Shown piece by piece: positions 14,296 to 40,552 of a DNA stretch of 64,000 nt. A program made the position numbers and the translations under genes. Origin of the DNA: Candidatus Altiarchaeota archaeon (GTDB taxonomy: Archaea; Altiarchaeota; Altiarchaeia; IMC4; SCGC-AAA252-I15); the NCBI GenBank assembly GCA_043800255.1, contig JAZDNF010000001.1, forward strand, positions 128,001 to 192,000. Reading direction: 5' to 3'. Under the pieces are notes generated by a model. The model worked only from the letters and a program-made list of their open reading frames with translations. It did no database searches and was not told the origin of the DNA. Each line of letters opens with the position of its first letter. Position 1 is the first letter of the stretch.

Positions 14296-15879
14296 ATGCG
14301 TAAGTTTTTAATCCTGATACTGGCGCTTTCAGTCTTTTTCAGGTTCTATGACCTACACTCTGTTCCATCATGGGACTGGGACGAGGGAGTGAACTTGAAC
14401 GTAATCCGCAATCTGTTGGACGGACGATTTCAGCTCTTCTCTGTAAAATACACTTTCTTCCCTCATCCTCCGCTTTTTTTCATTGTCGGGGGGATGATGA
14501 TTAAGCTCTTCGGCTATGAACTTTATTCTCTGCGGCTGATGACCGCATTTTATGGTGTGCTTACTGCGTTGTTGGTTTATGCGATCTCGACCAAGATGTT
14601 CGGCAGAAGAGTTGGCATAACGGCTGGTCTGCTCTACGCATTATACCCCTCCGCAATATATTTCAGCAGAATAGGTTTCGCTAACAATCAGGTCGTGCTG
14701 CTGTCGGCCTTCTCGGTCTATGCAATCTATTCCTATCTTAGAAATGAAGGCGAAAGATGGCTCTATGTCGCATCCATTGCGAACGGCACAGCTATTATAA
14801 CAGAATATACGGCTGTGGCCGGTCTTGTAGCGTCTTCATACCTGTTGCTGAAATACAAAAAGGAGACCCTACCTAAGTTTCTTTTGGTATCCCTACTACT
14901 GCCTCTAACGGTTTTGTCTGCGCTGTTCCTGATGTCATCAGATTCTCTGGTCTATGACATACTCGTGCAGGTCAGGAGGGTCTCCACACCATTCTTTTTC
15001 CTTGTCGCCTCCCTAACCGTGGTTGCCATGTTAACCATCTACAAGTTCGGAAATTTCATCAGGGAATTCTTCAGGGTTTTCACCTCAAATCTGAACGAGG
15101 TTACCGTGCCCGCATTCGTCATGATATCCATCTTCTCGCTGAAGCTGCATTCCGGGGGCCTGCAATTAAATGACGATATGTTCTACGGCGGGGTAACATA
15201 TCTGAATCTCATGGGACTTCTAAGCGTTTTCCTGATACTCCCCACCCTAAAAAAATCCATCGAACGGAGCGCACTCTCAGCTTACACTATAGGATACCTC
15301 CTTCTGCTCCTCGCATTGAACAGAGCTGACCACATGCTCATGTTCATCTATCCTTACACAATCATGCTCCTGGGGCTGCTGATTGAGAAAACCTACGTTG
15401 TTGTGAGGGAGTTCACAAAGGAAAACAACATCAACCCGGTGATACTGGTTATAATGGCCTACCATCCCCTCTTCTTCATATTCGTGCAGGATGTGCAGAC
15501 GTTTGTCATAGGAAATGCCATTGGTTCGACCCATGAGAGCGATTTCCTGGGACTTGTCGACTACCTAAACAATAGAACAGAGCCTAATGATGTCATCCTC
15601 ACTTACAGTTTTCTTGAGCCCTACCTCAAAGGAAAGACGTGTACGGTGATAGAATCCATTGCGTATGAGGGTCAGTCGATAAAATACTATCCGGGGGACA
15701 TCGACAGGGACCGGTTCGTATTCAATTGTTCCTACAAGTATGCGAGGTATATCACCATGACAAACGGCACGAGGGATAACATGTTGGATGGTAAGGAGTA
15801 CGAAAACCTGTCAGACTATCTGGAAACCCTCGAATACGATGTAGTGGGCAATTTTTTCGTATATAAAAGGGATATTTAA
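14296..15879 (+). CDS. GT-C fold glycosyltransferase (GT39/ArnT-PMT-like)
   Basis: WDEG loop motif, HPPLFF, many TM helices, C-terminal soluble domain. Confidence 0.85.
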   Translation: MRKFLILILALSVFFRFYDLHSVPSWDWDEGVNLNVIRNLLDGRFQLFSVKYTFFPHPPLFFIVGGMMIKLFGYELYSLRLMTAFYGVLTALLVYAISTKMFGRRVGITAGLLYALYPSAIYFSRIGFANNQVVLLSAFSVYAIYSYLRNEGERWLYVASIANGTAIITEYTAVAGLVASSYLLLKYKKETLPKFLLVSLLLPLTVLSALFLMSSDSLVYDILVQVRRVSTPFFFLVASLTVVAMLTIYKFGNFIREFFRVFTSNLNEVTVPAFVMISIFSLKLHSGGLQLNDDMFYGGVTYLNLMGLLSVFLILPTLKKSIERSALSAYTIGYLLLLLALNRADHMLMFIYPYTIMLLGLLIEKTYVVVREFTKENNINPVILVIMAYHPLFFIFVQDVQTFVIGNAIGSTHESDFLGLVDYLNNRTEPNDVILTYSFLEPYLKGKTCTVIESIAYEGQSIKYYPGDIDRDRFVFNCSYKYARYITMTNGTRDNMLDGKEYENLSDYLETLEYDVVGNFFVYKRDI

Positions 15880-15901
15880 ATGCGTGATTTCATATTCTAA
15901 C

Positions 15902-16240
15902 ATGTCCAAGGCGAATCCAAGCAAGGTTCAATTGGCGTTTACCTCCATACTCCTTCTCATAGCCTTATCCAGCATAGTATCCGCTCAATCATGGGTTACG
16001 GCTGTTTCGAGCATAGTCTGCGGGCTTCTGGTTGACGCCCTCAAGAACATCGTAGGAGCCTTGGCTGCCGTGGTCTTCGTATATTCCGGCGTAGAATACG
16101 TCATCTCCCAGGACGATCCAGGAAAGAGGAAGAATGCCAGGGACATGATGATATACGCATTGGTCGGTATCATCCTGGTTGGAATTGCTGCTACGATAAT
16201 CGGCGCTGTCCCGGGTTTCACAGGCTTGGGGTGCACATAA
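15902..16240 (+). CDS. TrbC/VirB2-like pilin 1
   Basis: Signal peptide (VSA-Q), IVC, hydrophobic helix, GVEYVISQDDPGKRKNARD, helix, C-terminal Cys. Confidence 0.75.
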   Translation: MSKANPSKVQLAFTSILLLIALSSIVSAQSWVTAVSSIVCGLLVDALKNIVGALAAVVFVYSGVEYVISQDDPGKRKNARDMMIYALVGIILVGIAATIIGAVPGFTGLGCT

Positions 16241-16242
16241 AA

Positions 16243-16644
16243 ATGAGAAGGGCAAAATTGATGTCAGATATTTTCGAGAACATGAGATTATTCGAGAACG
16301 TAAACAAGATACTTGTCGTGTTGTTTGTTTTATCAACTCTGACCCAGGGTCAGATGTCCTCCTCCAGCATATCCTCACCAGTCAATGAGATACTCTGCAT
16401 GATTTACAACGGCATATACCAGATTGCGGCTTCCCTTGCTGTGCTGGTTTTCGTGTTCGCTGGGGTCAAGTATGTTTCATCCATGGACGACCCTGGCAAG
16501 AGGAAATCAGCCAAGGATACCATGATAGCTGCCATAATCGGGTTAATAATCGTTTCAATCGGCAAGGCTCTCGTCAATCAGGTTCTCGAGAGCGTGTTGG
16601 GCTCAGGCTACAGCGTATCGTCTGCGTGTCTTGACTTCACTTAA
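16243..16644 (+). CDS. TrbC/VirB2-like pilin 2 (start may be 16261 or 16282)
   Basis: ILC...GVKYVSSMDDPGKRKSAKD...AIIG...SAC. Confidence 0.75.
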   Translation: MRRAKLMSDIFENMRLFENVNKILVVLFVLSTLTQGQMSSSSISSPVNEILCMIYNGIYQIAASLAVLVFVFAGVKYVSSMDDPGKRKSAKDTMIAAIIGLIIVSIGKALVNQVLESVLGSGYSVSSACLDFT

Positions 16645-16648
16645 GATT

Positions 16649-16990
16649 ATGAAGCCTTCAACTCAATTGAATAGAACTTGTGTTATATGCGCGCTTGCAT
16701 TTCTTGCGGTTCTAATATGCTCAGCAGACGCTCAGACCATAACGCCCCAATCCATATTCGTCCCAGTCTCGTCCATCGTATGCACCTTCAGGAGGGCGAT
16801 AGTTGAAATAGTGGGCGCCCTGGCATCGGTCATATTCGTGATATCCGGAATACGGTGGATATGGTCCCAGGACGACCCAGGCAAGAGGAAATCCGCAAAG
16901 GATGCGATGGTTCATGCCATAGTCGGCCTGATAATAATCGGGGTTGCGGATGAGATTGTTCAAAGCTTCAATTTCGTCGGGTGCACTTAA
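16649..16990 (+). CDS. TrbC/VirB2-like pilin 3
   Basis: ADA-Q signal; IVC...GIRWIWSQDDPGKRKSAKD...AIVG...GC. Confidence 0.75.
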   Translation: MKPSTQLNRTCVICALAFLAVLICSADAQTITPQSIFVPVSSIVCTFRRAIVEIVGALASVIFVISGIRWIWSQDDPGKRKSAKDAMVHAIVGLIIIGVADEIVQSFNFVGCT

Positions 16991-16992
16991 AG

Positions 16993-17337
16993 ATGAAATC
17001 AACAACGTATCTGGTGCTGTTGGCGGTATTGGCGGCCGGCATTACGGTCGCGCAGACAATGTCGTCTGATGTCATCTCCGACCCGGTGCTTGCGATAGTG
17101 TGCGGCATATACAACGCATTCAGAACGATAGGCGTCACCATCGGAGGCCTCGTATTCTTATATGCTGGCGTAAAGTATGTAACTGAGAGCGACGATCCCG
17201 CGGCAAGGAAGCAGGCCAGGGACATCATGAAGATCATGGTAATCGGGATTGGCATAATCCTGCTCGCAGACGTGACAATATACACCGTAGGCGGCACTGC
17301 CCTCTCAAACTCGTGCGTACCCTACATTCCAACATAA
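16993..17337 (+). CDS. TrbC/VirB2-like pilin 4
   Basis: TVA-Q signal; IVC...GVKYVTESDDPAARKQARD...SC. Confidence 0.75.
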   Translation: MKSTTYLVLLAVLAAGITVAQTMSSDVISDPVLAIVCGIYNAFRTIGVTIGGLVFLYAGVKYVTESDDPAARKQARDIMKIMVIGIGIILLADVTIYTVGGTALSNSCVPYIPT

Positions 17338-17338
17338 A

Positions 17339-17689
17339 ATGAAAACTAAGGCCCTTATCCTGGCAGGCTTCATTTTGCTGGCTGCGCAAACAGTCTCATC
17401 TCAGACCGTCGGGACATCGCTCACGAATGAGATATGGAGCTATGTAAAACCGGTAGTATGCGGACTATTCGTCGGTTTCACCCTGATAGGAGGGTCTATT
17501 GCAAGCGTTATGATAATCTACGCCGGCATAAAATATCTGACATCAGCCGATGACCCAGCGGCTCGGAAGAATGCGAAGGATATGATAACCCATGCGATGA
17601 TAGGAATCGTAATCATCCTTATCGCCAATTTTATCGTGGCCACGGTAACCCAGGGCGAGTTTTTCGGGTGCCAGTACTGGACATTCTAA
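17339..17689 (+). CDS. TrbC/VirB2-like pilin 5
   Basis: VVC...GIKYLTSADDPAARKNAKD...AMIG...GC. Confidence 0.75.
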   Translation: MKTKALILAGFILLAAQTVSSQTVGTSLTNEIWSYVKPVVCGLFVGFTLIGGSIASVMIIYAGIKYLTSADDPAARKNAKDMITHAMIGIVIILIANFIVATVTQGEFFGCQYWTF

Positions 17690-17690
17690 A

Positions 17691-18035
17691 ATGAAAATTA
17701 AGGTAACTAAAGCCCTAGTGATGCTCGGATTAATGGCCCTAGTTGGTCAGGTTGCCGCTCAGTTTCCTGTTTACTCGCTTGACACGCTTATCTACACACT
17801 CACGGATCCTATACTCTGCTCGATTTACAACGGCTTTAAGATGATAGCAGGCGGGCTTGCTGTCGTTATGCTGGTTTTAGCTGGAGTTAAATGGATGTCT
17901 GCCGCAGACGATCCCCCAGCAAGAAAAGTCGCGAAGGACATGGTGATACACACTGTAATTGCCCTTATAATAATCGTGCTCGCGACTTTGATCGTTGATA
18001 TAGCGTCCGGCGGACAGCTGACGGCTTGTCCATAG
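17691..18035 (+). CDS. TrbC/VirB2-like pilin 6
   Basis: VAA-Q signal; ILC...GVKWMSAADDPPARKVAKD...AC. Confidence 0.75.
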   Translation: MKIKVTKALVMLGLMALVGQVAAQFPVYSLDTLIYTLTDPILCSIYNGFKMIAGGLAVVMLVLAGVKWMSAADDPPARKVAKDMVIHTVIALIIIVLATLIVDIASGGQLTACP

Positions 18036-18055
18036 CATCTAATAGCGGATGACCT

Positions 18056-18385
18056 ATGAAAAAGAACGCCCTAATCCTAATACTTTTTTGTTATATGACG
18101 TCCGGAATTTTCGAGTACGCCGGCGAGATTTCTTCACAAATATCGACGGTATTTGAGACTTCGTTCTGCACAGTATACACTGTGATATGGTACCTTGCAG
18201 GAGTCCTAGCATCCGCCATTATCGTGGTTCAGGGCCTGAAGTGGGTGGAGGCTGACGATGACCCCGGCCAGAGGCAGCGTGCTAAAGAGACGATCGTGAA
18301 TGTGATATACGCTCTGATCTTCATAATCATCGGGAAGATACTCGCAGAGCTGATTATCGGCGAAACTTTCAACTGTGCGCCCTAA
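18056..18385 (+). CDS. TrbC/VirB2-like pilin 7
   Basis: SFC...GLKWVEADDDPGQRQRAKE...NC. Confidence 0.72.
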   Translation: MKKNALILILFCYMTSGIFEYAGEISSQISTVFETSFCTVYTVIWYLAGVLASAIIVVQGLKWVEADDDPGQRQRAKETIVNVIYALIFIIIGKILAELIIGETFNCAP

Positions 18386-18389
18386 TCCC

Positions 18390-18397
18390 TTTATTAA
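18390..18397 (+). promoter_or_regulatory. Putative TATA box for pilin 8 (leaderless transcript)
   Basis: TTTATTAA in an AT-rich spacer, 23 nt before ATG 18421. Confidence 0.45.
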
Positions 18398-18420
18398 TTT
18401 ACAATTAGAATCTGTATAAC

Positions 18421-18756
18421 ATGAGGCGGTTAGCTGTCCTTATCCTACTCCTTCTCATCGTTTCAACTGGCGGATGTGTAACAGACGATTTTGATACGTT
18501 CATAGCGGACCTCACAACGCTTCTGGAAGAGATGGCGCAGATGATATGCGACCTGAACGAGGCTGTTCAGCTGATCGTGGGCGTCGTAGGCTCTTTTGTA
18601 ATAGTCCTCGCAGGCCTTAAATGGGTTGGATCGCAGGACAACCCCCAGGAAAGGACTAAGGCTAAGCAGATGCTTCAGGCGGTAGTCGTTGGTTTCGCAA
18701 TAGTGGCGTCAGCGACTTTTATAGTCGAATTTGTACTGGGAAGCAGCTGCATCTGA
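18421..18756 (+). CDS. TrbC/VirB2-like pilin 8 with lipoprotein-type signal
   Basis: MRR-hydrophobic-TGGC lipobox; MIC...GLKWVGSQDNPQERTKAKQ...SC. Confidence 0.72.
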   Translation: MRRLAVLILLLLIVSTGGCVTDDFDTFIADLTTLLEEMAQMICDLNEAVQLIVGVVGSFVIVLAGLKWVGSQDNPQERTKAKQMLQAVVVGFAIVASATFIVEFVLGSSCI

Positions 18757-18761
18757 GCCGC

Positions 18762-18769
18762 TTTATATA
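18762..18769 (+). promoter_or_regulatory. Putative TATA box for pilins 9-11/trpA
   Basis: TTTATATA, 23 nt before ATG 18793. Confidence 0.5.
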
Positions 18770-18792
18770 CGTTCAAAAGAAGTTATATAACA

Positions 18793-19116
18793 ATGTCCGC
18801 CAGTAGCAAGGCCATCCATCTGACTTTCCTCATATTGTCCGTATCAGGGAGCGTTTCAGCTCATCCTCTCACGGATTCGATAGCTGACAACCTGTGCATG
18901 ATATTCCAGGCCATAATCCTCATGACCGGCGTTATAGCCGTTCTCATGATCACGATAGCTGGCATGAGATGGATAGGTTCCGAGGACGATCCAGCTGCCA
19001 GGCAGAAATCAAAGGAGCAGGTTGAGAGCATAATAGTCGGGCTGATTATCGCGGCGGCCTCTATCGGCACTGCTGCTGTCGTGACCGGTCAGACTCCCTG
19101 CGTGTGGCCGATATAA
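18793..19116 (+). CDS. TrbC/VirB2-like pilin 9
   Basis: VSA-H signal; NLC...GMRWIGSEDDPAARQKSKE...IVG...PC. Confidence 0.72.
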   Translation: MSASSKAIHLTFLILSVSGSVSAHPLTDSIADNLCMIFQAIILMTGVIAVLMITIAGMRWIGSEDDPAARQKSKEQVESIIVGLIIAAASIGTAAVVTGQTPCVWPI

Positions 19117-19117
19117 C

Positions 19118-19405
19118 ATGGTTAACGTAGATTTTACGCCGGCACTGAAGTACATATGCGTGATGTCATGTTTCATCAGGCTTGTTGTCGGCCCGATAGC
19201 GGTCCTGATATTGTCTCTTGCAGCGCTACACTGGCTTAAGTCCGAGGACAAGCCAGACGAGAGGAAGCAGTCCAAGCAGCAAATGAAGAACGTGCTGGCT
19301 GGTATCGTAATCATAACCATAGGTTACATTGTGGTTGAGGCAATCTTAGGCTCGGCTTCCATGGTAAACTGTGATGCGGTAACAGGTAACGCATGTCCAG
19401 TATGA
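19118..19405 (+). CDS. TrbC/VirB2-like pilin 10 (no evident signal peptide, 4 Cys)
   Basis: ICVMSC...ALHWLKSEDKPDERKQSKQ...NC...AC. Confidence 0.65.
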   Translation: MVNVDFTPALKYICVMSCFIRLVVGPIAVLILSLAALHWLKSEDKPDERKQSKQQMKNVLAGIVIITIGYIVVEAILGSASMVNCDAVTGNACPV

Positions 19406-19716
19406 AAAAGATCACAATTGTCATAGCAGGCGTGTTGTCAGCCGGCTCAGCGGCTGCGATAACCGGATTGCAACTTGTGCAACCCGTCTACGATGTTGTC
19501 TGCCTTTTTAAGGATGCTGTTGAGAATACCATAGGCGCGTTAGCCGCCATTCTTTTCGTATATGCTGGCATAAAATGGATAACCTCCGAGGAGGTGGAGG
19601 AGCAATTGCACGCGAGGGACATACTGGTGTACACTATAATCGGGCTGATACTGCTTGGGGTTATTGGAGGCATTACGCGCATACTCTTCCCAAATGTAAT
19701 CCTATCGTGCATTTAA
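19402..19716 (+). CDS. TrbC/VirB2-like pilin 11 (acidic loop)
   Basis: VVC...GIKWITSEEVEEQLHARD...IIG...SC; ATGA overlap with pilin 10. Confidence 0.7.
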   Translation: MKKITIVIAGVLSAGSAAAITGLQLVQPVYDVVCLFKDAVENTIGALAAILFVYAGIKWITSEEVEEQLHARDILVYTIIGLILLGVIGGITRILFPNVILSCI

Positions 19717-30468: not shown

Positions 30469-33400
30469 ATGGAAATCCCCGCAGGCTGCAAGTCTTCAGG
30501 GAGCCTGAGTCTCCTAAGAAAATACTGTTCTGTCCTCGCACTCATTCTACTCTACCTAATATCTCCTGCTCTGGCTGAAACCACTTGCGAGGTTACTCCC
30601 GACAGGGTGTGCGGTGACGGCGACCCATGGTATGGCACAATACTCATAAACGCGGAGGGAAACTATAATTCGGCAGGTTCGGCGGCTGTTGACATTAACA
30701 ACAATGTAATGAGCGGCGCCTCAACTTCAGACTGTTTTGTTAAAATCGTTGCAGTGCAAAGCGACGGCGACTCATGGTGCCTAACCCCCGCTGGCGTTGC
30801 GTATGCCTGTCCTAGCATGCTCAACCTGCATGTAGCTAACTACTCTGAAGCGTTCTCTGGCGAGTACAGCGTACTCGGCGACCCTATACTATATATCAAT
30901 CCTTCGACAGGGGTGCCTGACCCTGACAACGGAAACTATACTGTCGTTGACGCGGACTGGGAGTTTGTAGGGATAAACGAGTCTCATGAGGTTTCCGAGA
31001 TTTACAACATACGGAAGAGGGAGGAGCCTGATTTTTCGGTTGTGAAGAGGATTGTCGTTTACACTCTGGTCAGAGGGTGTGATAACATAGAGTTGATAGG
31101 CGGGATAAACTGTAAGAATGAGAAACTCACCCAGGTTGACTATGACGTATTGGGCGGGGAAGCCGATACCGTCTACTATAAGAACCTACAGAATCGCGGC
31201 TACACGCCGTGCGAGTATTTTGTGATAGACTATGGCAAATTCTACCGGTATCCTGGAGTCTATTTCGTCCTGTTGAACAAGTCCAAGTTCGGCTCTAACA
31301 GGGGGCTTAGCTACTATAGCATAGTGGGGCAGGAGGATTCGCGTAGGGGCATAAGCCGCCTCTACGAGGAGTCCATACGCTCGCATGAGTTTTACGATCC
31401 GTCTGATCGTGTATGCTGCAGGTATTCCACAGCAACTGGGGGGGTGAGCAACTATAAATGCGTCAGCTATGAGCAGTGCGAGGCTTGCGCATTCGGAACA
31501 AGCTGTTCTGAGGTCGCTCCGAGCTACTGTGCGGACCAGACGCCTATCTGCTGCGGTATGGACTGCAGTTCTGGCGACTTTAGGGAGTTGAGGAGCGTTT
31601 ACAATTCCATTCTTATCTGGAATTGGGAGGCCGGTCCTAGAGTGGTCGGTTGTGATCTCTGCGGGCCAGGTAACGTGACCTGCTCCATGGGGAGCTCATT
31701 GTCTGCGTATTACGCCCACCCGAGCAAGAACATCAGAATATATCCTCCATATTATCCTGATAGGTACTGCGGCTACTACTTCGAGCCGCGACAGATGATT
31801 GGCACGTGTGACTGCGTCACGGGCGAGAACTGTGGAGAAGACGACTGCGCGAGATGCTCTAGGATGGGCTATGGTTGCAGGTGGGATACTGCAGGAATAA
31901 ATGAGTGCTTAGGGTGTCACTATTCCATAGAGCCCACTGCCCAACCTGACCTTAAGTTGATCGACAAATCTGTCAAGAGTATTGAAACGGCTCTAAATGA
32001 GACTTTCATAACCTGGAGCGAATGGTGGTGCAACTCATGCGGCAAGAACATGCAGGGGGGCAACGATGGCCCGTGGGGGCTGATACAGGGCGAGGGTGCG
32101 ACATGCATGGGACTGGACAATGATACGACAATACCCTGCTCGTTATACGACTGTAAGGTGCCTTGGAATTGCTCTGACCCCCAACCAGTCGGCAATAATT
32201 GGAATTACCCCAGCAGGGGGGCTGGCGTCGGCTACATATACTATATTGCTCAAGGCAGCAGAGACTATGGTGATTATCTTACCGATGTCGATCCGACAAA
32301 CTGTTCGGACTATGTTACAGACAGCGACCCCCCATACTTTCTGAACGACAGATATTCTAAATGCTACAACGACGGAAGCACCTGGAAGTGCAACTGCACC
32401 CGCCCTGAGCACGTCCCGAAACAGCACACTCCCTGCGAATGTCCATCCGGCAGTTATGACTGCTGCATAGAGTACGTCGACTACGATGATGCGCAAACCT
32501 TCCTAATAAACGAGGAAAAAGCGGTGCCATCACCGTGTGCTCCAAGCCCTCAGGGCTTGCACTGTTATTTCTACGGTGAAGAGGAGGCAGGCGCCTCAGA
32601 GTGCACATGTGAAATGTCATTGGGAACATGCGACCCGCCTGACGGCTACTGTTCAAAAAACGCGGGAGAAACGCCTGTGACCTGCTCTGCGGACTGCAAC
32701 AGCTGCGATCCAAAACCGTGCAATGATAATGCAGTGTGCGAGCCTAACGAGCACTACTCCTGGTGTGATGACTGCCTCTGCGAGGACTCAAGCGATGGTT
32801 GCGATTTCGGTTCGGACGATGAGAATCCACTTTTCTGCATAGCAGACGTCTACATCCCCCAGTATACCGGAGCGGCACCGCCCGTGAATCCGAGCACAGG
32901 AAAAGCTGTCAACAAATTCAACAGGTGCCCATGCGGAGACAATAGGTGTTCTCCGATATTCAACGAGAACAACGAGACATGCCCAAACGATTGCGGATAC
33001 CCCCCAAGCGTTGTAGGCGACGGCGTCTGCTGGAATAGAGATGGGGCGACCGAGAGCTGGATGAATCAGGGGCCCACCTGCTATGCTTTCATAGGGAACT
33101 GGGCTGACGGTTGCGCGACCGTGGACTGCCCCCTCCCGCCGGGGGAGAACGGTGATGGGGTCTGCCAGTTCTGGAATGGAGAATGGCAGGGCGGCGAAAG
33201 CGAGGACATGGAAGTAATCGACAGCTCCGCCGACTGCAGTGGGAGCTACGATTGCTGTGTGCCGGCTGACGTATATTGTGACGATGACGGAGTCTGCAGG
33301 ACCGACAGACGAGAGGGAGAATACAGCGCGTCATATCCTACTCCCCAGACCTGTGCTGACTGCCAGGGCTGTGACACAACATGCAACGACGACGGCCATT

Positions 33401-36400
33401 ACGAGTACACGTGTTGTGAATACTACTGCTGGGACGGCATCGGAAACTGTAATGTTCCATGCTCCGCTGGAGACCCTGACGTCTGTTCCTATCAGAATCC
33501 AGTGTCATGTGGCGCAAGCGACCCAGACCAGTGCCCGACTTCGCCTCAGTGGGTCGGTTGCGACCCAGGCGAGACCAGTACGAACTGTCCCAATGACTGC
33601 AAGGATAGTTCAGTATGCGATGGGGACGGAGACTGCGAGCCATGCTACGGTGAGAATACCGCAAATTGTGGTTCAGACTGCAAGCCAAGCGGGGCGTGCA
33701 TTGTGAACGGCATCTGTGAGCCAGTGTTCGGCGAGAATCTGCAAACATGCCCGCAGGACTGCCCGGTAACGGTCAACAATCCAGGAGACTGCGGTGACGA
33801 AGTATGTTGGTGGGATGTTTTCGGGTCACCCGGAAGTTCGCCGCCAGCCTGGGAGACTCATGAGAACTGTTGGGACGAGGACACCAAAACAGGCGACTGC
33901 CCCCACCCGCCGGGATGGTGCGGGGACTTTGTATGCTGGCCGTATCCTCCATTTATTGATACATCAAGTACATGTCATACTGACTTGGATGGCCCAGGAT
34001 ACGAGACTGACTACTGCTGCCCGCAGGACTGCGACCCGCAACCTTATGATGGTAATCACGTCTGCGAGCCTACTGAGAACTGCCAGGATAACGAGAATGA
34101 CTGCCCCTTCCCGCCAGCCAAGGACGTTAACAATGCCCCAAGAGATGATGATATCTGCCAGTGGTGGGCTGGGGAGACCCCGGCGGATGATGATGCATGC
34201 GACCCTCCGACGGTGGGCGAGTTGCAGTACGTCTGCAAGGGCACCCCGCCACGATGCTGCGCTTGCCCGGACGTTTACACGTCATCAGCATTCGACCCTT
34301 CATACTATAGGATGTTCACGAGGGATAGCATCTGGACGAAGACGTTCAAGATGACGCCTGAGGTGTCTAATTCAACCCTAAGGGATTGTACAACAGAGCT
34401 CTCGTGCCTCGAGGCGAAGAATCTTTACGGCCCAGCTGGCAGTCCAGGCGCATCATGCTGGGAGAATGCATCCAACCTGGTTTGTGACGGATGCTACGGC
34501 GGTGGGACAAACTGCAAGAACTGCAACGGCAATGACACCTACAAACAGCCGGTAACACAGTGCGGCGACTACACGATAAGCGCAGACGAGTGCATGGCAG
34601 ACCCGTGCGGGGCGGCGACCGTTGCCTCAGGCATAAAATACGGTGGCTGCTTCAATCCAGGAGGAGGATGCACGGACTGCTATACCATATGGGGTCGGGG
34701 CTGCTCCGCGTATGCTGCAGACCAGTGGAACTGCGAGCACGATCCTTGTGACATCGAAAACTGCGCCTGGAACAAGGCAGCTGGCCAGTGCCAGGATGTC
34801 GGGGCTTCACAGTTGTATTGTGCTGACGTGTGCCCGCCGGGTACGTGCTTTGAAGACGAATGCATAAAGTCGTCGAAACTGACATTGGACGGGTGCATGT
34901 TCACCTCTACTGGCCTGGGGTGTGTAAGCTGCGATGATGTCAGGTCGTGCTCTGATGTTGCAAAAGCCTCTTGTAAGGCTAACACATGCCGTGATCTCAA
35001 ATGCTTTTGGGACAGCACAGACAATCGCTGCAAGGACTGTAGAGGCGTCATTCACACGGAAGGATGCGCAGGATACGCGAACATCACAGACTGCATCGAC
35101 AACCCCTGTGGTGTGGTATCAGGCTGCGCCTGGGGCGAGGAGGACAAGTGCATTGACTGCTCCCTTATCAACTCATGTCAAGATTACCTTAAACCTTGCG
35201 GTCCTTTTACCGGAATCGGATGCAGGTGGGCACCTGACGAAAGTTGTACGGACTGCTATCCTGACGATCCATTGGGCCTGAAGGCATACGGAGCAGCATG
35301 TCATACTGACCCCTGCAACGTCGGACCCTGCGGGATGGTTGACACAAACCCTGGTTTTGGCGAGACATGGACCTGTATGCCGCGAGGAGAATATAAACTT
35401 GGGTGCTATGAGGCCGTCTACAGTGCCGCTGTTGAGGATGAGAAGATGCTGTGCAGCCTGAATGCGATGAATCTCACACCCGGAGGGTGCTACTGGGATC
35501 TGGAGGATGAACGATGCTACAGCTGCTACGGTCACGATGCATTAGATTCTGATGCGTCAGACAACGACAACTATCCTGTACCTGCGTGCGAGAACTATGA
35601 CCGGGGAAGAGAAGGGGACAACGTAACCTGCCTTGATGACTGGTGTGATATTGGACCATGCTACTGGAACAACACTAGGCTGAGCGGAGACCGCTGCAAA
35701 AAGGCGTTCTCGATAAAGCCTGCGGCAGACCAGACCGGCTGGATAAGAAGCGGAGGCAAGTCAGGCGAGCTTAGCCCGAATGAAATAGACGCCAACGCCG
35801 GCGGAGGCCCATTCTGGGTCCATGCTGGCGGCGGGGCTGACATACCAAATCTAAGCGAGGCATGGGGTAATACTCCCCCTTACCCGCCTAATCAGGCATT
35901 CTGTGCAGACTACCGGGAAGGCTCAATATGGTCTGAGCTGAAATCGTACTATACTGTGAGGAGGAACTATTGTTACAGCGTTCAGGATCCTGTCTTGAAC
36001 GCCTGCGATCCAACTACTACAACCTGCGCTCTAGGCGGTGTCGGAGGTGCAGGATGGTATGGGGAAGCAGGAGTTCAAGCGGAGAACCTCAATAGCAGAC
36101 GGCCCAGAAAGCCTGTGGGGGCTCATGGTGGCGATGGCGTTGATGACCCGCCATACGTTTGCGGCACGATGTGCGGCAAGTATGTAACGCCCTACAGCGA
36201 CCCCTACTCTCCGCCAATATTGTCGACCACACGGTGGCCTCACCCAGACGATTACTTCAACCCTTACATGTGGGCTTGGTTTAACCTGACGGTGAACGAG
36301 ACCGATCTCAGCGGCGTCAATGAGATGACAATCACCGACGTTTATGTCCGCAGCACATCCCTGAGGGCAGACAGCCGCGGGATAGAGACGAGAGGCGGGC

Positions 36401-38421
36401 ACTATGGGCCCAACCTGCAGGGGAACATACTCCCCCGGCCCAGCCAACCTTATACAATATTCAACTGGTTTAACATGCCTGAAACGACATCGGACGGTTA
36501 TACCCTAGAGGATGATACTGCTAACATCTCAGTCAGAGGGAATTACACGGCGAATATGACCCTCTTCAGGGAGGATAAGGCGCTGCAGTGCGCATGGGAC
36601 AGCTGCCTACCGCGGTCAGGGGTAGAACGAGACAGAGTATACCAGGATTCTTGCTCACATACTTCGCCATGCAGCGGCTGCTGTACCAGTTGGAGCGGCC
36701 CAGGTTATTGTGGGATACCTGGATGCAGTCCAACCTACTCAGACCCATGCGGCCACTCAGGGCAGTATGCAAACAAGTGGGAGCACTGTGAACAGTGGCA
36801 GGCGCAGTTAGTGGACTCCAATGGCAATGGCGTCTGCGATGCGGGTGAGTATTACAATTGCCAGTGTTCGTCTGAAACGTACTATTACCGCTGCATTGCC
36901 TGCTGGCTGCATGAGGATTGCAGCTATCCAATTGGCCCGAACGATTTCACGAGCATAGCCAGCAGCCAGGAGAACGTTACTGACACATCATCGGTCCAGG
37001 CTGATCCCTACGGAGAGAACCTGACAATATCCCCCCCTCTGTCAGGCGATACTAGTGTCAAAATAACGGTTGGGGGATACGTTGACACCAAGCAGAAGGT
37101 CGGAGCGTCAGGCGTCATCCAGATATCAGGCGAGCCTGACATAATAAGTGGTTTCACGCTCCTCGTGCCTGATGTAATACGATTAGAGCATATCACAAAA
37201 CAATACCCTGCAGAGCATATGCTCACCAGGCTCGCAATTGCAAGCTCATGGGATGATTGCCCAACCGCTAGCTCAGACCTAACGTGCAAGGACGATTCCG
37301 GGACAGATCGTACCATAGCCTGCAACGACTATAAGCAGTACAATATTCTGGGCGCAGGTGAAAATGAAAACCAGGTTCTAACCTGCCTTGACACGGCATC
37401 GAAGAGGGAGATAAGCAGGTTCATACCCTTAAGAGATCCCCAGTGGGCTTACCTGTATCTCATCAACAACCCCCTTAACAAGTACTACTACTTTGTCGAC
37501 CGCTATGATGCAACAGACAAGAACTACACCTTCAGGGTCGATGTTGTAGGATTAAAACCCGGCTTAGTTGGCGGCGTAAGCATCGTGAAATGGGCCGATG
37601 CCGCGAAGAATGTCGGCACGTTCAGAAATTATCACGAGGACGAGAGGTTCTACTACGATCTGGCAGACCTCTACCGGCAGCCCCGCGATTACAATGTCGT
37701 GCGTCTGGAAGCACTGCCTGAATTGGCCGACTCGCCAGTCCAGAGAAAGACGAATGTTGATACCATATCCTTGGACTTCATGACGACTATGAACGGAGAG
37801 GTATTCTACAATCCATCAGACAAGTCATATACTCTGGAATTCTGGTCAGATAACATAAATGTCTCAGACTTCGGGTATGCCAAGCTCATAATCTTTACAA
37901 ACTACCGCAACATCGAGATTCCCCTCGTAAATGCGGTCACAGTAGGCGGAGTCACATCAGCGGTGATTCACAGGATTCCTGTTACCATAACCTGCAATCC
38001 GTGGAAGGCTGACGCCTTCACAACAGTGGACTTCTCATGCACTATTAACGCAGCAGTTCCGAATCCTGTCATGGAACTGCGCTTCGACGCCCCCTACTCC
38101 CAATACTCAGGAAGATACATGTCAGGTCAGGTGATACCCCTAAAGACGGACCGGTCAAGCATAACAGTCAAGGCGAAGTATGACGGTAACTACAATGGCG
38201 GCCCGAGCCAAGCATATTCCGGCGCGGAACTGATACACCGCACGAATGTGACCTCGAAGGGCGCGTTGCTTTTCCTGCTGAGGAACATACTGGTGCTGAT
38301 ACTCGCGTTCTTCGTGATTGTCGGCTACAGGTGGTTCATGAAGAACAGGCTTGACTTTGAGATGATGATAAAAGAGTCTGGAATATACGAGGCGCTGGAG
38401 GACTTTTTGGGTTTGAAGTAG
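30469..38421 (+). CDS. Giant (2650 aa) Cys-repeat cell-surface protein, signal peptide and C-terminal TM anchor
   Basis: Signal (ALA-E), two classes of Cys repeats, many N-x-S/T sequons, C-terminal hydrophobic helix and short tail. Confidence 0.85.
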   Translation: MEIPAGCKSSGSLSLLRKYCSVLALILLYLISPALAETTCEVTPDRVCGDGDPWYGTILINAEGNYNSAGSAAVDINNNVMSGASTSDCFVKIVAVQSDGDSWCLTPAGVAYACPSMLNLHVANYSEAFSGEYSVLGDPILYINPSTGVPDPDNGNYTVVDADWEFVGINESHEVSEIYNIRKREEPDFSVVKRIVVYTLVRGCDNIELIGGINCKNEKLTQVDYDVLGGEADTVYYKNLQNRGYTPCEYFVIDYGKFYRYPGVYFVLLNKSKFGSNRGLSYYSIVGQEDSRRGISRLYEESIRSHEFYDPSDRVCCRYSTATGGVSNYKCVSYEQCEACAFGTSCSEVAPSYCADQTPICCGMDCSSGDFRELRSVYNSILIWNWEAGPRVVGCDLCGPGNVTCSMGSSLSAYYAHPSKNIRIYPPYYPDRYCGYYFEPRQMIGTCDCVTGENCGEDDCARCSRMGYGCRWDTAGINECLGCHYSIEPTAQPDLKLIDKSVKSIETALNETFITWSEWWCNSCGKNMQGGNDGPWGLIQGEGATCMGLDNDTTIPCSLYDCKVPWNCSDPQPVGNNWNYPSRGAGVGYIYYIAQGSRDYGDYLTDVDPTNCSDYVTDSDPPYFLNDRYSKCYNDGSTWKCNCTRPEHVPKQHTPCECPSGSYDCCIEYVDYDDAQTFLINEEKAVPSPCAPSPQGLHCYFYGEEEAGASECTCEMSLGTCDPPDGYCSKNAGETPVTCSADCNSCDPKPCNDNAVCEPNEHYSWCDDCLCEDSSDGCDFGSDDENPLFCIADVYIPQYTGAAPPVNPSTGKAVNKFNRCPCGDNRCSPIFNENNETCPNDCGYPPSVVGDGVCWNRDGATESWMNQGPTCYAFIGNWADGCATVDCPLPPGENGDGVCQFWNGEWQGGESEDMEVIDSSADCSGSYDCCVPADVYCDDDGVCRTDRREGEYSASYPTPQTCADCQGCDTTCNDDGHYEYTCCEYYCWDGIGNCNVPCSAGDPDVCSYQNPVSCGASDPDQCPTSPQWVGCDPGETSTNCPNDCKDSSVCDGDGDCEPCYGENTANCGSDCKPSGACIVNGICEPVFGENLQTCPQDCPVTVNNPGDCGDEVCWWDVFGSPGSSPPAWETHENCWDEDTKTGDCPHPPGWCGDFVCWPYPPFIDTSSTCHTDLDGPGYETDYCCPQDCDPQPYDGNHVCEPTENCQDNENDCPFPPAKDVNNAPRDDDICQWWAGETPADDDACDPPTVGELQYVCKGTPPRCCACPDVYTSSAFDPSYYRMFTRDSIWTKTFKMTPEVSNSTLRDCTTELSCLEAKNLYGPAGSPGASCWENASNLVCDGCYGGGTNCKNCNGNDTYKQPVTQCGDYTISADECMADPCGAATVASGIKYGGCFNPGGGCTDCYTIWGRGCSAYAADQWNCEHDPCDIENCAWNKAAGQCQDVGASQLYCADVCPPGTCFEDECIKSSKLTLDGCMFTSTGLGCVSCDDVRSCSDVAKASCKANTCRDLKCFWDSTDNRCKDCRGVIHTEGCAGYANITDCIDNPCGVVSGCAWGEEDKCIDCSLINSCQDYLKPCGPFTGIGCRWAPDESCTDCYPDDPLGLKAYGAACHTDPCNVGPCGMVDTNPGFGETWTCMPRGEYKLGCYEAVYSAAVEDEKMLCSLNAMNLTPGGCYWDLEDERCYSCYGHDALDSDASDNDNYPVPACENYDRGREGDNVTCLDDWCDIGPCYWNNTRLSGDRCKKAFSIKPAADQTGWIRSGGKSGELSPNEIDANAGGGPFWVHAGGGADIPNLSEAWGNTPPYPPNQAFCADYREGSIWSELKSYYTVRRNYCYSVQDPVLNACDPTTTTCALGGVGGAGWYGEAGVQAENLNSRRPRKPVGAHGGDGVDDPPYVCGTMCGKYVTPYSDPYSPPILSTTRWPHPDDYFNPYMWAWFNLTVNETDLSGVNEMTITDVYVRSTSLRADSRGIETRGGHYGPNLQGNILPRPSQPYTIFNWFNMPETTSDGYTLEDDTANISVRGNYTANMTLFREDKALQCAWDSCLPRSGVERDRVYQDSCSHTSPCSGCCTSWSGPGYCGIPGCSPTYSDPCGHSGQYANKWEHCEQWQAQLVDSNGNGVCDAGEYYNCQCSSETYYYRCIACWLHEDCSYPIGPNDFTSIASSQENVTDTSSVQADPYGENLTISPPLSGDTSVKITVGGYVDTKQKVGASGVIQISGEPDIISGFTLLVPDVIRLEHITKQYPAEHMLTRLAIASSWDDCPTASSDLTCKDDSGTDRTIACNDYKQYNILGAGENENQVLTCLDTASKREISRFIPLRDPQWAYLYLINNPLNKYYYFVDRYDATDKNYTFRVDVVGLKPGLVGGVSIVKWADAAKNVGTFRNYHEDERFYYDLADLYRQPRDYNVVRLEALPELADSPVQRKTNVDTISLDFMTTMNGEVFYNPSDKSYTLEFWSDNINVSDFGYAKLIIFTNYRNIEIPLVNAVTVGGVTSAVIHRIPVTITCNPWKADAFTTVDFSCTINAAVPNPVMELRFDAPYSQYSGRYMSGQVIPLKTDRSSITVKAKYDGNYNGGPSQAYSGAELIHRTNVTSKGALLFLLRNILVLILAFFVIVGYRWFMKNRLDFEMMIKESGIYEALEDFLGLK
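32629..34104 (+). repeat. Protein-level repeats, type 1: C(G/D)DGxC...E...CPxDC (about a dozen degenerate copies)
   Basis: e.g. CGDNRCSPIFNENNETCPNDC, CDGDGDCEPCYGENTANCGSDC, CIVNGICEPVFGENLQTCPQDC. Confidence 0.75.
34561..35697 (+). repeat. Protein-level repeats, type 2: C..Y....C..DPC...C.W.....CxxC
   Basis: e.g. CSAYAADQWNCEHDPCDIENCAW, CAGYANITDCIDNPCGVVSGCAWGEEDKCIDC, CLDDWCDIGPCYW. Confidence 0.7.
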
Positions 38422-38425
38422 GAGC

Positions 38426-40552
38426 ATGAAAAACCACAAATCATTAGGGTTGGCGGTTCTGGTTTTAGCGATAGTGCTGACTGCACAGCCTGTTGAAGCG
38501 GCTGTAAGCGACACGCTGTTCTATTTCCTGAACGAGATACTCAAGCTGGTAGCTCTCCTTTACAAGCATTTGATAGTGCTTGCCGGCCAGATTCTCAAAT
38601 TATACGTTGATGTCATAGAGCAAAGCCTGCTCGCAAACCCTCAGATATACCCTCTGAAGGACAGTGCAGGAAATCTTACGACAAACGGCGCGATAATAGC
38701 AGGCTTCCTGAAAATACTCGCTCCAGTTTATTTCATATCACTCCTCCTGACGGGCCTTTACATGATTTTCATGGCAGAGTCTCCTTCGGGGAGGGCGAGC
38801 GCCAAAAACAACCTTGACAAGCTTCTTGTCTCGATGATTCTGGTCGCTGTTTCGCCAGGCCTATACCAGATATTAGTGGACATATCTCAGGTTACAACTA
38901 ACGGCATCCTATCCGTTGTCAGGACAACGCTGGCGGAGGATGAGACAATGGCAGATGCCATATACTCCTCGTTGATGAGCGCACCACCCCAAACGCAACT
39001 GATGATGCTGCCGATATTCATGATCGTCCTGTGGATTCTCGCAATAGCGTTGTTTGTGATGTGGTTCAGATACCTTATCGTGCTCGTGTTCGGCCTGATC
39101 TTCCCGATAATAATATTCCTCTATCTGTTCGGGTTCACCAAGACATTCGGCGCGAAGATGATGAGGTTCGCTCTCGTCTGGATATTCACTCCAGCATTGA
39201 GTGCGCTGTGGCTTGCCATCTCCATATTCCTCCTCACAGCATCGGCGTCGGAGTCGTTTACAGGAGGCCTGGTCACGCCATTCCTCTTCGCGACGAGCAT
39301 GTTCCTGATATCAATAGCTCCCCTCGTGATGAGCGGCCTCATGGCGTGGCTCGGCGGCCTGATTGCGATGGCAGGGATGATGATACCCGGAGGGTGGGGG
39401 ATAGCATTGGCAGCCATAGGAGGCGTAATGCAGGGCAAGGATCTGGGATCGATAGCTGGTTCCACAATAGGATTAGAGCTCCAATTCCACAAGTTACTTG
39501 GGAAGGGCATGGCCGCGGCCGGCCAAAAAAGCAGGGGCGGCGCATTCGGAGCGTTGGGTATGGGAGGAAAGGGCGCGAGCGCGGCTGGTAGGGCTACCGA
39601 AGCCGGTGGCAAGGCAGTCAGTGCGGGTGGGAAGGCAGTTGGTGGCGCATTTCAGGCTGCAGGCGCAGCCGTTGGTGCAACTGGAGTCGGAGCTCCCATC
39701 GGGGCAGCATTGGCTGGAATCGGCAAAGGAATATCAGCAGGCTCGGAGGCAATCGGTAAGGGGATTGAATTTGCAGGCAAAGGTATGAAGGCTGGAGGCA
39801 GTGCAATGGAGTCTGCCCGCGGCAGGCACCTGAAGGCGGCAGGCAGGGGCAAAATAACAGAAGCCAAGGGCGCGAGAGACAGGGCGAAGTCCTTGCAGGC
39901 GAGGGGAGACAAGCTTAAGAGCGGCGGGTTTATGTCGCAGGTGAGGGCTAAGGCTGGCATGTATGACACTCGTGCTAAGTTAGCGGAGAGGAAAGCAGGC
40001 AAACTGAAAGATAAGGGAGTGAGCATGCGGAACAAGGGCAAGGGCATCATAGCGGAAAGCAAGAAAGGCGCTCCTGGCCTGAACTTTGGGGACACTAAGC
40101 TCGGCCAGAAGATGAAGAAAGTGGCTGATGTCGCGAAAACTGCAAGAGGGGCTGTCGCCAGCAAGAGCCTGAGGCTGACATCGTTGGCCGGCGTTGACAG
40201 GGACACTGCCAAGCTTCTGAGGACAGCTAACTATAAAACGAAGGGCGCGGTTGCGAAAGCCAGCGTAGGAGATCTGCAGAAGGCCGGCCTCAGTGCAAAA
40301 CAGGCGGAAGACGCTTCTAAGTCTGCGAGGAGCCATGTCGCTGGAGAGAGGCAAAAAGGCGCTGGCACGGACAGAGAGCCTTCAACCGAGGATCGTATTA
40401 GGAAGGGCATCAAAGATGACAAGAGTGACGATGCTGATAAGAGAAGGATGGACGAAGTCCAGCTTAAGAGCCAGCTCGCCAGCCCAGGCAGGAGATCTCG
40501 TGATAGGGGGCAGAGGACAGATGACATCATAGACGGCATGGACGCCGAATGA
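38426..40552 (+). CDS. VirB6/TrbL-like polytopic membrane protein with Gly/Ala-rich linker and HhH-like domain
   Basis: Multi-TM core with FRYLIVLVFGLIFPIIIFLYLFGFTKTFG...WIFTP pattern; TrbL-like G/A-rich region; HhH-like segment near the C-terminus. Confidence 0.65.
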   Translation: MKNHKSLGLAVLVLAIVLTAQPVEAAVSDTLFYFLNEILKLVALLYKHLIVLAGQILKLYVDVIEQSLLANPQIYPLKDSAGNLTTNGAIIAGFLKILAPVYFISLLLTGLYMIFMAESPSGRASAKNNLDKLLVSMILVAVSPGLYQILVDISQVTTNGILSVVRTTLAEDETMADAIYSSLMSAPPQTQLMMLPIFMIVLWILAIALFVMWFRYLIVLVFGLIFPIIIFLYLFGFTKTFGAKMMRFALVWIFTPALSALWLAISIFLLTASASESFTGGLVTPFLFATSMFLISIAPLVMSGLMAWLGGLIAMAGMMIPGGWGIALAAIGGVMQGKDLGSIAGSTIGLELQFHKLLGKGMAAAGQKSRGGAFGALGMGGKGASAAGRATEAGGKAVSAGGKAVGGAFQAAGAAVGATGVGAPIGAALAGIGKGISAGSEAIGKGIEFAGKGMKAGGSAMESARGRHLKAAGRGKITEAKGARDRAKSLQARGDKLKSGGFMSQVRAKAGMYDTRAKLAERKAGKLKDKGVSMRNKGKGIIAESKKGAPGLNFGDTKLGQKMKKVADVAKTARGAVASKSLRLTSLAGVDRDTAKLLRTANYKTKGAVAKASVGDLQKAGLSAKQAEDASKSARSHVAGERQKGAGTDREPSTEDRIRKGIKDDKSDDADKRRMDEVQLKSQLASPGRRSRDRGQRTDDIIDGMDAE

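Follow-up and report, generated by a model that had tools for sequence, protein, structure and literature searches.

The window analysed here is a 64,000-nucleotide stretch of an archaeal genome (contig JAZDNF010000001.1, positions 128,001 to 192,000), and coordinates are window positions unless another contig is named. Positions 38426 to 40552 on its plus strand encode a polytopic membrane protein of the VirB6/TrbL type, 708 amino acids (aa) long, with a tail carrying a tandem helix-hairpin-helix domain, (HhH)2; its open reading frame (ORF) scored 416 bits against a hidden Markov model (HMM) of its family. Near the N-terminus of this protein lies a two-helix membrane hairpin, which profile comparison showed to be homologous to VirB2-type pilins that this genome encodes. 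The genome also holds one VirB4, a PrgI/VirB3-like partner, five VirB6-like paralogs, at least 15 free pilins and giant surface proteins. We read the hairpin as a VirB2-like module in the VirB6 core and the protein as part of a VirB4-driven chromosomal apparatus resembling a type IV secretion system (T4SS), and we propose that in this apparatus the hairpins probably recruit pilins and the (HhH)2 domain holds DNA.

The hairpin spans positions 38681 to 38929 (+), with helices at residues 86-115 and 120-168 in the AlphaFold2 model, and was also located by hhalign and by the Pfam pilin family T4SS_pilin (PF18895). The motif which a first-pass annotation had aligned by eye with the pilins, TGLYMIFMAESPSGRASAKNNL, lies at 38750 to 38815 (+), inside 38720-38850, and corresponds to residues 109-130 of the ORF. 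It consists of the turn between the two helices and the start of helix 2. The profile-aligned part of the hairpin covers residues 89-152, and P120, R123, A126 and K127 pair with the pilin P, R, A and K. R123 is invariant in all 77 aligned members of the VirB6-like family, and the matching Arg is present in 31 of 35 free pilins from this genome and its relatives. The turn is the best-conserved stretch of the orthogroup and is identical in two orthologs whose overall identities to the 708-aa protein are 80% and 58%. The hairpin has the two hydrophobic helices and the short basic turn of a pilin and is seen by a pilin profile; it is not a small, free, secreted and polymerisable subunit of about 100-140 aa, since it lies within a polytopic protein of 708 aa, and is to be called a pilin-like module rather than a pilin.

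The homology was evaluated with several profiles. An HMM built from the alignment of the 11 pilins encoded in tandem in the window was searched with filters off against the 20,788 six-frame ORFs of the whole genome. It found the 11 array pilins, four other free pilins and two pilin-domain proteins, and then VirB6-like proteins. The first-pass annotation had expected such a model to find the 708-aa protein, and it did so at rank 20, with a full-sequence E-value of 0.0066 (16.7 bits) and an E-value of 0.051 for the best stretch. All matches ranked above it were pilins, pilin-domain proteins or VirB6-like paralogs, and three VirB6-like paralogs were matched at the same N-terminal place. PF18895, a model built independently of this genome with a cut-off of 26.6 bits, gave 22 matches genome-wide at E ≤ 0.01: 15 free pilins, the two pilin-domain proteins and all five VirB6-like proteins. 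Not a single unrelated protein was matched. On the 708-aa protein it scored 18.0 bits (E 0.0049) at 38699-38872, covering profile positions 14-70 of 71, and one VirB6-like paralog exceeded the cut-off with 28.6 bits. The search was also run in reverse, using an HMM from the alignment of four VirB6-like paralogs on the same genome. At E ≤ 0.01 it recovered the five paralogs and, besides them, only eight pilins and one pilin-domain protein (on contig C11), all at the hairpin positions.

Profile-profile comparison with hhalign gave a probability of 90.4% for the four-paralog alignment against the 11 pilins. With 77 family members the probability was 93.5% (E 2.2e-7) over 64 columns, aligning residues 89-152 with pilin residues 48-111 at 16% identity. 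The register was the one that had been drawn by eye (G-G, P-P, R-R, A-A and K-K/R). As a control, a family of three polytopic glycosyltransferases from the same genome scored 0.19%. The VirB6-like family was taken as the best 150 representatives from a library of 1.84 billion proteins, and the 11-pilin HMM reached the hairpin at the expected position in 53 of them at E ≤ 0.01 and in 89 at E ≤ 0.1. PF18895 matched 16 of the 77 family members. Judged from the sequences, the resemblance is weak when the 708-aa protein is taken singly but solid across the family. The observation that the VirB6-like protein carries a pilin motif in this register is therefore confirmed, and it rests on the family because the scores of the 708-aa protein itself are below the curated thresholds.

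The VirB6-like nature of the protein, also suggested on first inspection, was upheld. The protein had 939 representative relatives at E ≤ 0.001, whereas a search for related loci among genome contigs, made with its sequence alone, brought up none; the opposite-strand ORFs within its stretch were short and overlapping. It begins with a signal-peptide-like segment (residues 1-25, 38426 to 38500, +; hydrophobic segment 5-29), and several hydrophobic segments were found up to about residue 331. In hhalign, VirB6 of Agrobacterium fabrum, taken like its VirB2 from the virB operon of pTiC58, matched the 77-member family with a probability of 84.7% (E 6.7e-6) at the most conserved core motif of the family, FP..IFLYLFGFTK.FGAK (residues 217-273, 39074 to 39244, +), which pairs with residues 169-223 of the A. 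fabrum protein. Pfam TrbL (PF04610) matched 14 of the 77 family members, with a best E-value of 3.1e-6, and one VirB6-like paralog of the genome gave 20.7 bits. The AlphaFold2 model of residues 1-400 had a mean predicted local distance difference test score (pLDDT) of 87.7, and the best natural solved structure for it was TrwI/VirB6 of R388 (Foldseek probability 1.00, E 0.076). VIA-align aligned 233 of 272 residues, model 55-304 on chain 2-266, with a root mean square deviation (rmsd) of 5.8 Å and a Z of 8.9, on a scale where values below about 13 are reachable by helical proteins through arrangement alone. The Atlas gave a template modelling score of 0.62 to a TrbL_3 cluster. Searching the family profile by sequence against solved structures returned only low-complexity matches, to the basic tail. 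Taken together, the sequence and structure links make the 708-aa protein a divergent relative of the VirB6/TrbL superfamily that lies outside the Pfam threshold; its gene is a paralog of the VirB6-like genes in the T4SS core and stands as a satellite to them.

From the aligned ranges of the model we infer that the hairpin occupies the place of α1-α2 of TrwI. The sections on TrwI in PMC9259494 describe the R388 protein (PDB 7o3v, 8rt9) as an N-terminal membrane hairpin followed by a helical domain, an arrangement that the model probably shares; the two proteins differ in that they share 12-16% identity and in the long basic (HhH)2 tail found here. The idea of a built-in pilin that had been inserted into the protein did not survive. 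The hairpin sits in the conserved VirB6 core, where TrwI has its two membrane helices, and a recently inserted pilin domain was rejected because PF18895 detects the hairpin as well as the genome's own pilins do.

The tail of the protein starts with a basic Ala/Gly/Lys-rich linker, defined by composition (39536 to 40165, +), that is probably cytoplasmic by its inferred side of the membrane. Residues 371-708 contain 17.8% Ala, 16.9% Gly and 12.4% Lys, and residues 400-708 have 66 Lys and Arg against 35 Asp and Glu. A domain resembling the N-terminal (HhH)2 domain of RadA was located at residues 583-639 (40172 to 40342, +) by HHH_5, RadA models, AlphaFold2 and Foldseek. HHH_5 scored 21.6 bits on this region, below its cut-off of 27, and the domain is kept in the two orthologs. 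The AlphaFold2 model of this piece had pLDDT values of 83-90 over about 50 residues. Its top Foldseek rows were mostly RadA/Rad51 N-terminal domains, plus NusA (the AR2 domain is listed separately), with a probability of 1.00, rmsd of 1.1-1.3 Å over 56-57 columns, 36-37% identity and E-values of at least 0.015. At the fold level, the model has two helix-hairpin-helix motifs in a five-helix domain, in agreement with the earlier suggestion of a C-terminal HhH, and the domain is predicted to bind DNA. The conserved C-terminal tail (LKSQLASPG...DIIDGMDAE, 40460 to 40549, +) was recognized by alignment with the two orthologs, in which the last 30 residues are nearly identical. These residues are absent from the other paralogs, a loose pattern for them was found in 5 of the 150 representatives, and they could be a docking peptide.

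The ATPase had been predicted to lie outside the window, and the genome indeed holds a single VirB4 on contig C5 (P-loop_TraG, 96.4 bits). The best solved homolog of this VirB4 is the monoderm-type VirB4 4AG5 (E 1.6e-33, compared with 7.8e-7 for TrwK). The gene lies behind a PrgI/VirB3-like gene (PrgI, 29.4 bits), and a 739-aa pilin-domain protein and a free pilin are encoded downstream. About 8 kb upstream of VirB4, the gene order begins with a PMT_2 glycosyltransferase and a pilin; next comes a 1749-aa protein with a VirB6-like domain at its N-terminus, and then proteins of 179 aa, 596 aa (VirB6-like) and 354 aa. In 9 of 9 relatives examined (families f1 and f3), the core genes stand together in a single operon with no interruption. 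The giant VirB6-like gene is present in eight of these loci, and the ninth stretch stops short of the N-terminal end of the large ORF upstream. PrgI and VirB4 are adjacent in 5 of 5 loci from families f5 and f7, in which four to five small VirB6-like genes stand in tandem elsewhere. Through the core operon, the VirB6-like family is thus encoded together with VirB4 and VirB2-type pilins. The motif had been thought to tie the 708-aa gene to the pilin array of the window, and this did not hold, since it is family-wide (5 of 5 paralogs, 53 of 150 representatives); the parts are tied together because of synteny in the relatives, not because of the motif.

The phylum is probably Altiarchaeota, since the top matches of the aIF2-gamma encoded in the window were metagenome-assembled genomes labelled Altiarchaeota or Altiarchaeales, with 62-69% identity. 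The distribution of the parts was examined in 61 genomes of the phylum. The VirB6-like family was found in 47 (E ≤ 1e-5), the pilin PF18895 in 48 (E ≤ 1e-5) and VirB4 in 45 (E ≤ 1e-10), consistent with the co-occurrence expected on first inspection. All these matches were confined to the order of this genome; none was found in the 12 genomes of the two other families of the class or in the one genome of family f2. The co-occurrence contrasts one clade with the rest and therefore counts as a single event. The system had also been described as relaxase-free. No relaxase was found in the genome in a search that covered one Pfam family, PF03432, and no coupling protein was found above the cut-off of PF02534; a TrwB-type model matched only the P-loop stretch of another ATPase.

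Our reading of the hairpin relies on what has been reported for R388. In the sections of Mace et al. 2022 (PMC9259494) that deal with TrwI, only α1 and α2 are within the membrane, all 50 top co-evolving VirB2-VirB6 residue pairs are in α1, and mutations in VirB6 α1 reduce conjugation. The same sections propose α1 of TrwI as the recruitment site of VirB2, model the pilus base on a VirB6 pentamer, and name α1 of VirB3 as another binding station of VirB2. A hairpin at the place of TrwI α1-α2 would therefore pack against membrane pilins as pilins pack together. It would bind membrane-embedded pilins by helix-helix packing of the pilin-pilin type, and a pentamer of hairpins would recruit pilins and give the growing pilus a five-fold base. 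DNA would be held at the cytoplasmic mouth of the channel by the basic (HhH)2 tail. Nucleation or docking of the pilus by the hairpin is a plausible proposal. A complex prediction with residues 27-372 (77-row alignment) and one mature pilin (11-row alignment) scored 0.00 in both runs, which were made without controls and speak neither for nor against such binding.

Several points weigh against this proposal. The 708-aa protein itself is below threshold, both with PF18895 (18.0 against 26.6 bits) and with the pilin HMM (stretch E 0.051), and alone it had no Pfam TrbL match at E ≤ 1. Two-helix membrane segments are alike in composition, so that their profile scores can be inflated, and a single control family was used. 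Neither Agrobacterium protein gave a link as a single sequence: A. fabrum VirB6 scored 0.25% against the archaeal pilin profile, and A. fabrum VirB2 scored 0.67% against the VirB6-like family. The VirB2/VirB6 signal is therefore much clearer in this archaeal family. The VIA Z to TrwI falls where helical arrangement alone can reach, and the match of the hairpin to α1-α2 depends on aligned ranges of a model, not on a residue-level superposition. About 19 kb separate the 708-aa gene from the pilin array, VirB4 is on a different contig, and the relaxase search covered the one Pfam family. Pilus formation and the movement of DNA, in one direction or the other, are predictions.

The main rival explanation is a shared handling step, which is compatible with pilin packing and which we consider possible, though on balance rather unlikely as the explanation of the resemblance. 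Here the hairpin and its basic turn would be common to the pilins and the VirB6-like proteins because both take the same insertion or signal-peptidase route, or because VirB3/VirB4 grips P..R..AK. In the grip version, the turn would let pilins be pulled from the membrane and would anchor the VirB6-like platform on the ATPase. The passages of Beltran et al. 2023 (PMC9905601) on this kinship read it as a sign of a common export pathway, and both the array pilins and the 708-aa protein start with signal-peptide-like segments. Conservation is highest in the turn, which presumably faces the cytoplasm, and not along the helix faces; that VirB3 α1 is a further binding station of VirB2 in the account of PMC9259494 agrees with such a step as well. 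However, the co-evolving VirB6 residues of R388 run along the intramembrane α1 in the same account, which fits packing with VirB2.

Another explanation is that the giant protein encoded directly upstream and the VirB6-like-HhH protein form a cassette which functions independently of the pilins and VirB4. In that case the VirB6-like paralog would have been co-opted as a membrane anchor or export platform for the Cys-rich surface protein, and the hairpin would be a remnant. The giant protein is encoded at 30469 to 38421 (+), is 2650 aa long and has a signal peptide and a C-terminal membrane anchor. Homologs of its C-terminal 799 residues were found in 15 of 40 relatives, and by coordinates 14 of the 15 immediately precede a VirB6-like gene in the same orientation; the fifteenth had no VirB6-like gene nearby among the matches listed. 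The upstream pairing identifies the giant protein and the VirB6-like gene as a conserved cassette, and its location away from VirB4, the five VirB6-like paralogs against one VirB4, and the four to five small tandem VirB6-like genes away from VirB4 in other families of the order all favor independence. On the other hand, the turn is the best-conserved part of the orthogroup and is unchanged in orthologs that are only 58% and 80% identical overall, a pattern that speaks for a retained function, and VirB6-like proteins, pilins and VirB4 share their distribution across the phylum. We regard a separate cassette as unlikely. Chance or convergence of two membrane hairpins with a short basic turn could be argued from the E-values of only 0.005-0.05 for the 708-aa protein and the profile identity of 16%, but it is highly improbable given that all five paralogs and no unrelated membrane protein of the genome were matched, all at the same place, that the register recurs in 53 of 150 representatives with the control family at 0.19%, and that the same kinship is independently reported for Ced and VirB in the passages of PMC9905601 on it.

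The proposal of pilin-recruiting hairpins in a VirB4-driven apparatus can be extended, speculatively and with a good deal of doubt, to one VirB4 that serves interchangeable VirB6-like platforms, each with its own giant protein and tail, as an order-specific system of modular, contact-dependent DNA exchange. If so, a cell could swap contact specificity and cargo handling, with (HhH)2 as the tail here and metallophosphoesterase or TPR tails in other members. The (HhH)2 tail would replace the missing coupling protein and relaxase by passing DNA straight to the channel.

Two known groups of systems resemble the one described here. According to the passages of Beltran et al. 2023 (PMC9905601) on this kinship, the N-terminus of CedA shares homology with the CedA1 pilin, and the same kinship, at lower significance, links VirB6 with VirB2 in A. 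tumefaciens. In Ced/Ted (CedA/CedA1 and TedA/TedC), as described there, the VirB6-like protein has an N-terminal region homologous to its own system's VirB2-like pilin, as is the case here, and those systems, too, are encoded on archaeal chromosomes, contain VirB4-, VirB6- and VirB2-like parts and have no relaxase. The chromosomal VirB4-like ATPase, VirB6-like channel and VirB2-like pilin that make up Ced/Ted were all found in this genome, the comparison made here being one of parts. Unlike Ced/Ted, this genome has a PrgI/VirB3-like protein, five VirB6-like paralogs, at least 15 pilins including the 11-gene array, PMT_2 glycosyltransferases and giant-protein cassettes, and its host belongs probably to Altiarchaeota and not to Thermoproteota.

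The second group is the chromosomal T4SS of Patescibacteria, also known as CPR (candidate phyla radiation) bacteria. The parts of PMC12102498 on these loci describe VirB4, PrgI/VirB3, VirB6 and arrays of 2-11 divergent VirB2-like pilins, mostly without a relaxase, in uncultured hosts with small genomes, and include the locus of Southlakia epibionticum. The same parts were found here, including a divergent pilin array of 11 genes, and the monoderm type of the best solved VirB4 homolog (4AG5) is a hint of the same placement. The system described here differs in being archaeal, in having several VirB6-like paralogs with HhH, metallophosphoesterase and TPR tails, and in its conserved giant-protein partners. 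No VirB5, VirB7-10 or VirB11 partners turned up in this genome, though no search was aimed at them. VirB6 proteins are also extended or multiplied in bacterial diderm systems: TraG of the F plasmid has a VirB6 domain fused to a very large extension, and Rickettsiales have several tandem VirB6 paralogs per system. The VirB6-like proteins described here are likewise extended and multiplied.

The first-pass annotation had rated the novelty of the arrangement too highly, because the kinship is in print (Beltran et al. 2023, in its passages on CedA and VirB) and the type of system is known from Patescibacteria in the parts of PMC12102498 cited above. The hairpin is a clear new example, in a new phylum, of the known VirB2/VirB6 kinship and not a new principle, and it adds a statistically cleaner case. 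Within the library searched there was no published account that combines Altiarchaeota and VirB4, no paper, judged by title, on a type IV secretion system in Altiarchaeota, and no description of an order-wide Altiarchaeota T4SS, of giant-protein cassettes or of varied cytoplasmic tails. The results describe a conserved, multi-locus T4SS-like apparatus, near-universal within a single order of an archaeal phylum about which little is known. The hairpin turn, the giant-protein cassettes and the predicted DNA-binding tail are targets for work on pilin recruitment and DNA handling in a minimal T4SS, that is, one without coupling protein or relaxase.

The pilin array itself consists of 11 tandem VirB2-type (T4SS_pilin) genes at 15884 to 19716 (+). 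All 11 were above the PF18895 cut-off, most matched TrbC/VirB2 too, and they are 20-45% identical to the first one. The pilin profile had no significant match among solved structures; the top one was a filamentous-phage coat protein (E 0.08). Two Cys residues, one just before helix 1 and one at the C-terminus, are invariant columns in 11 of 11 array pilins. Among the 35 free pilins of this genome and its relatives, the first Cys is present in 21 and a Cys within the last 25 residues in 34. Some bacterial conjugative pilins are cyclised head-to-tail, and a disulfide between the pilin ends would mimic such cyclisation. Directly upstream of the array is a gene for a PMT_2 family (GT-C type) glycosyltransferase (14296 to 15879, +; PF13231, 56.1 bits). 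Three loci of the genome (14296-15879 in the window, C5:50891-52489 and C8:104102-105712) have a PMT_2 glycosyltransferase gene immediately upstream of pilin genes, and one heads the core T4SS operon in several relatives. This adjacency is a hint of glycosylated pilins or giant proteins.

Two other proteins carry a pilin domain. The 739-aa protein (C5:72025-74244, L002:10025-12244) has an embedded T4SS_pilin domain (32.8 bits) and a thrombospondin-type repeat. Its gene is directly downstream of VirB4, this position is kept in relatives, and the protein may be a pilus-integrated adhesin or a minor pilin, judging by its domains. The other is an isolated 178-aa protein (C11:90827-91363, L005:6827-7363), far from all other T4SS genes, with a Cys-rich N-terminal part and a T4SS_pilin domain of 30.1 bits.

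Two of the five VirB6-like paralogs are giant. A second VirB6-like gene pair, encoding 1423 and 735 aa, was found at C7:144364-151315 (L003), and the 1423-aa protein ends in a calcineurin-like metallophosphoesterase domain (23.9 bits, above cut-off). Other members of the VirB6-like family have TPR or SAM tails. The cytoplasmic tails thus differ among the paralogs.

The giant protein of the window contains 204 Cys residues (7.7%), mainly at residues 200-1800, and very little Lys and Arg in its middle. It matched no Pfam or NCBIfam family, and only its C-terminal third is conserved in relatives. The possibility that it is a VirB6 fusion was rejected, as it lacks the VirB6-like domain that the 1749-aa protein encoded in the core locus does have. 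Outside the genomes, one DNA run from a groundwater metagenome contained a small share (0.15) of the sequence words, and no RNA run was listed as containing them.

In the core locus, the VirB4 ORF as listed (C5:69321-71837) overlaps the PrgI gene. The VirB4 match in most relatives begins at query residues 69-95, and there are stop codons in the upstream stretches; the true start of VirB4 is therefore probably about 75-95 codons further in. In this genome the core operon is interrupted: about 6.5 kb of genes on the opposite strand (C5:62102-68584), absent in the relatives, separate the 354-aa gene from PrgI. This insertion comprises four ORFs and a KaiC-like ATPase (121 bits), and two of the four ORFs contain a Cys-rich motif reminiscent of radical SAM enzymes.

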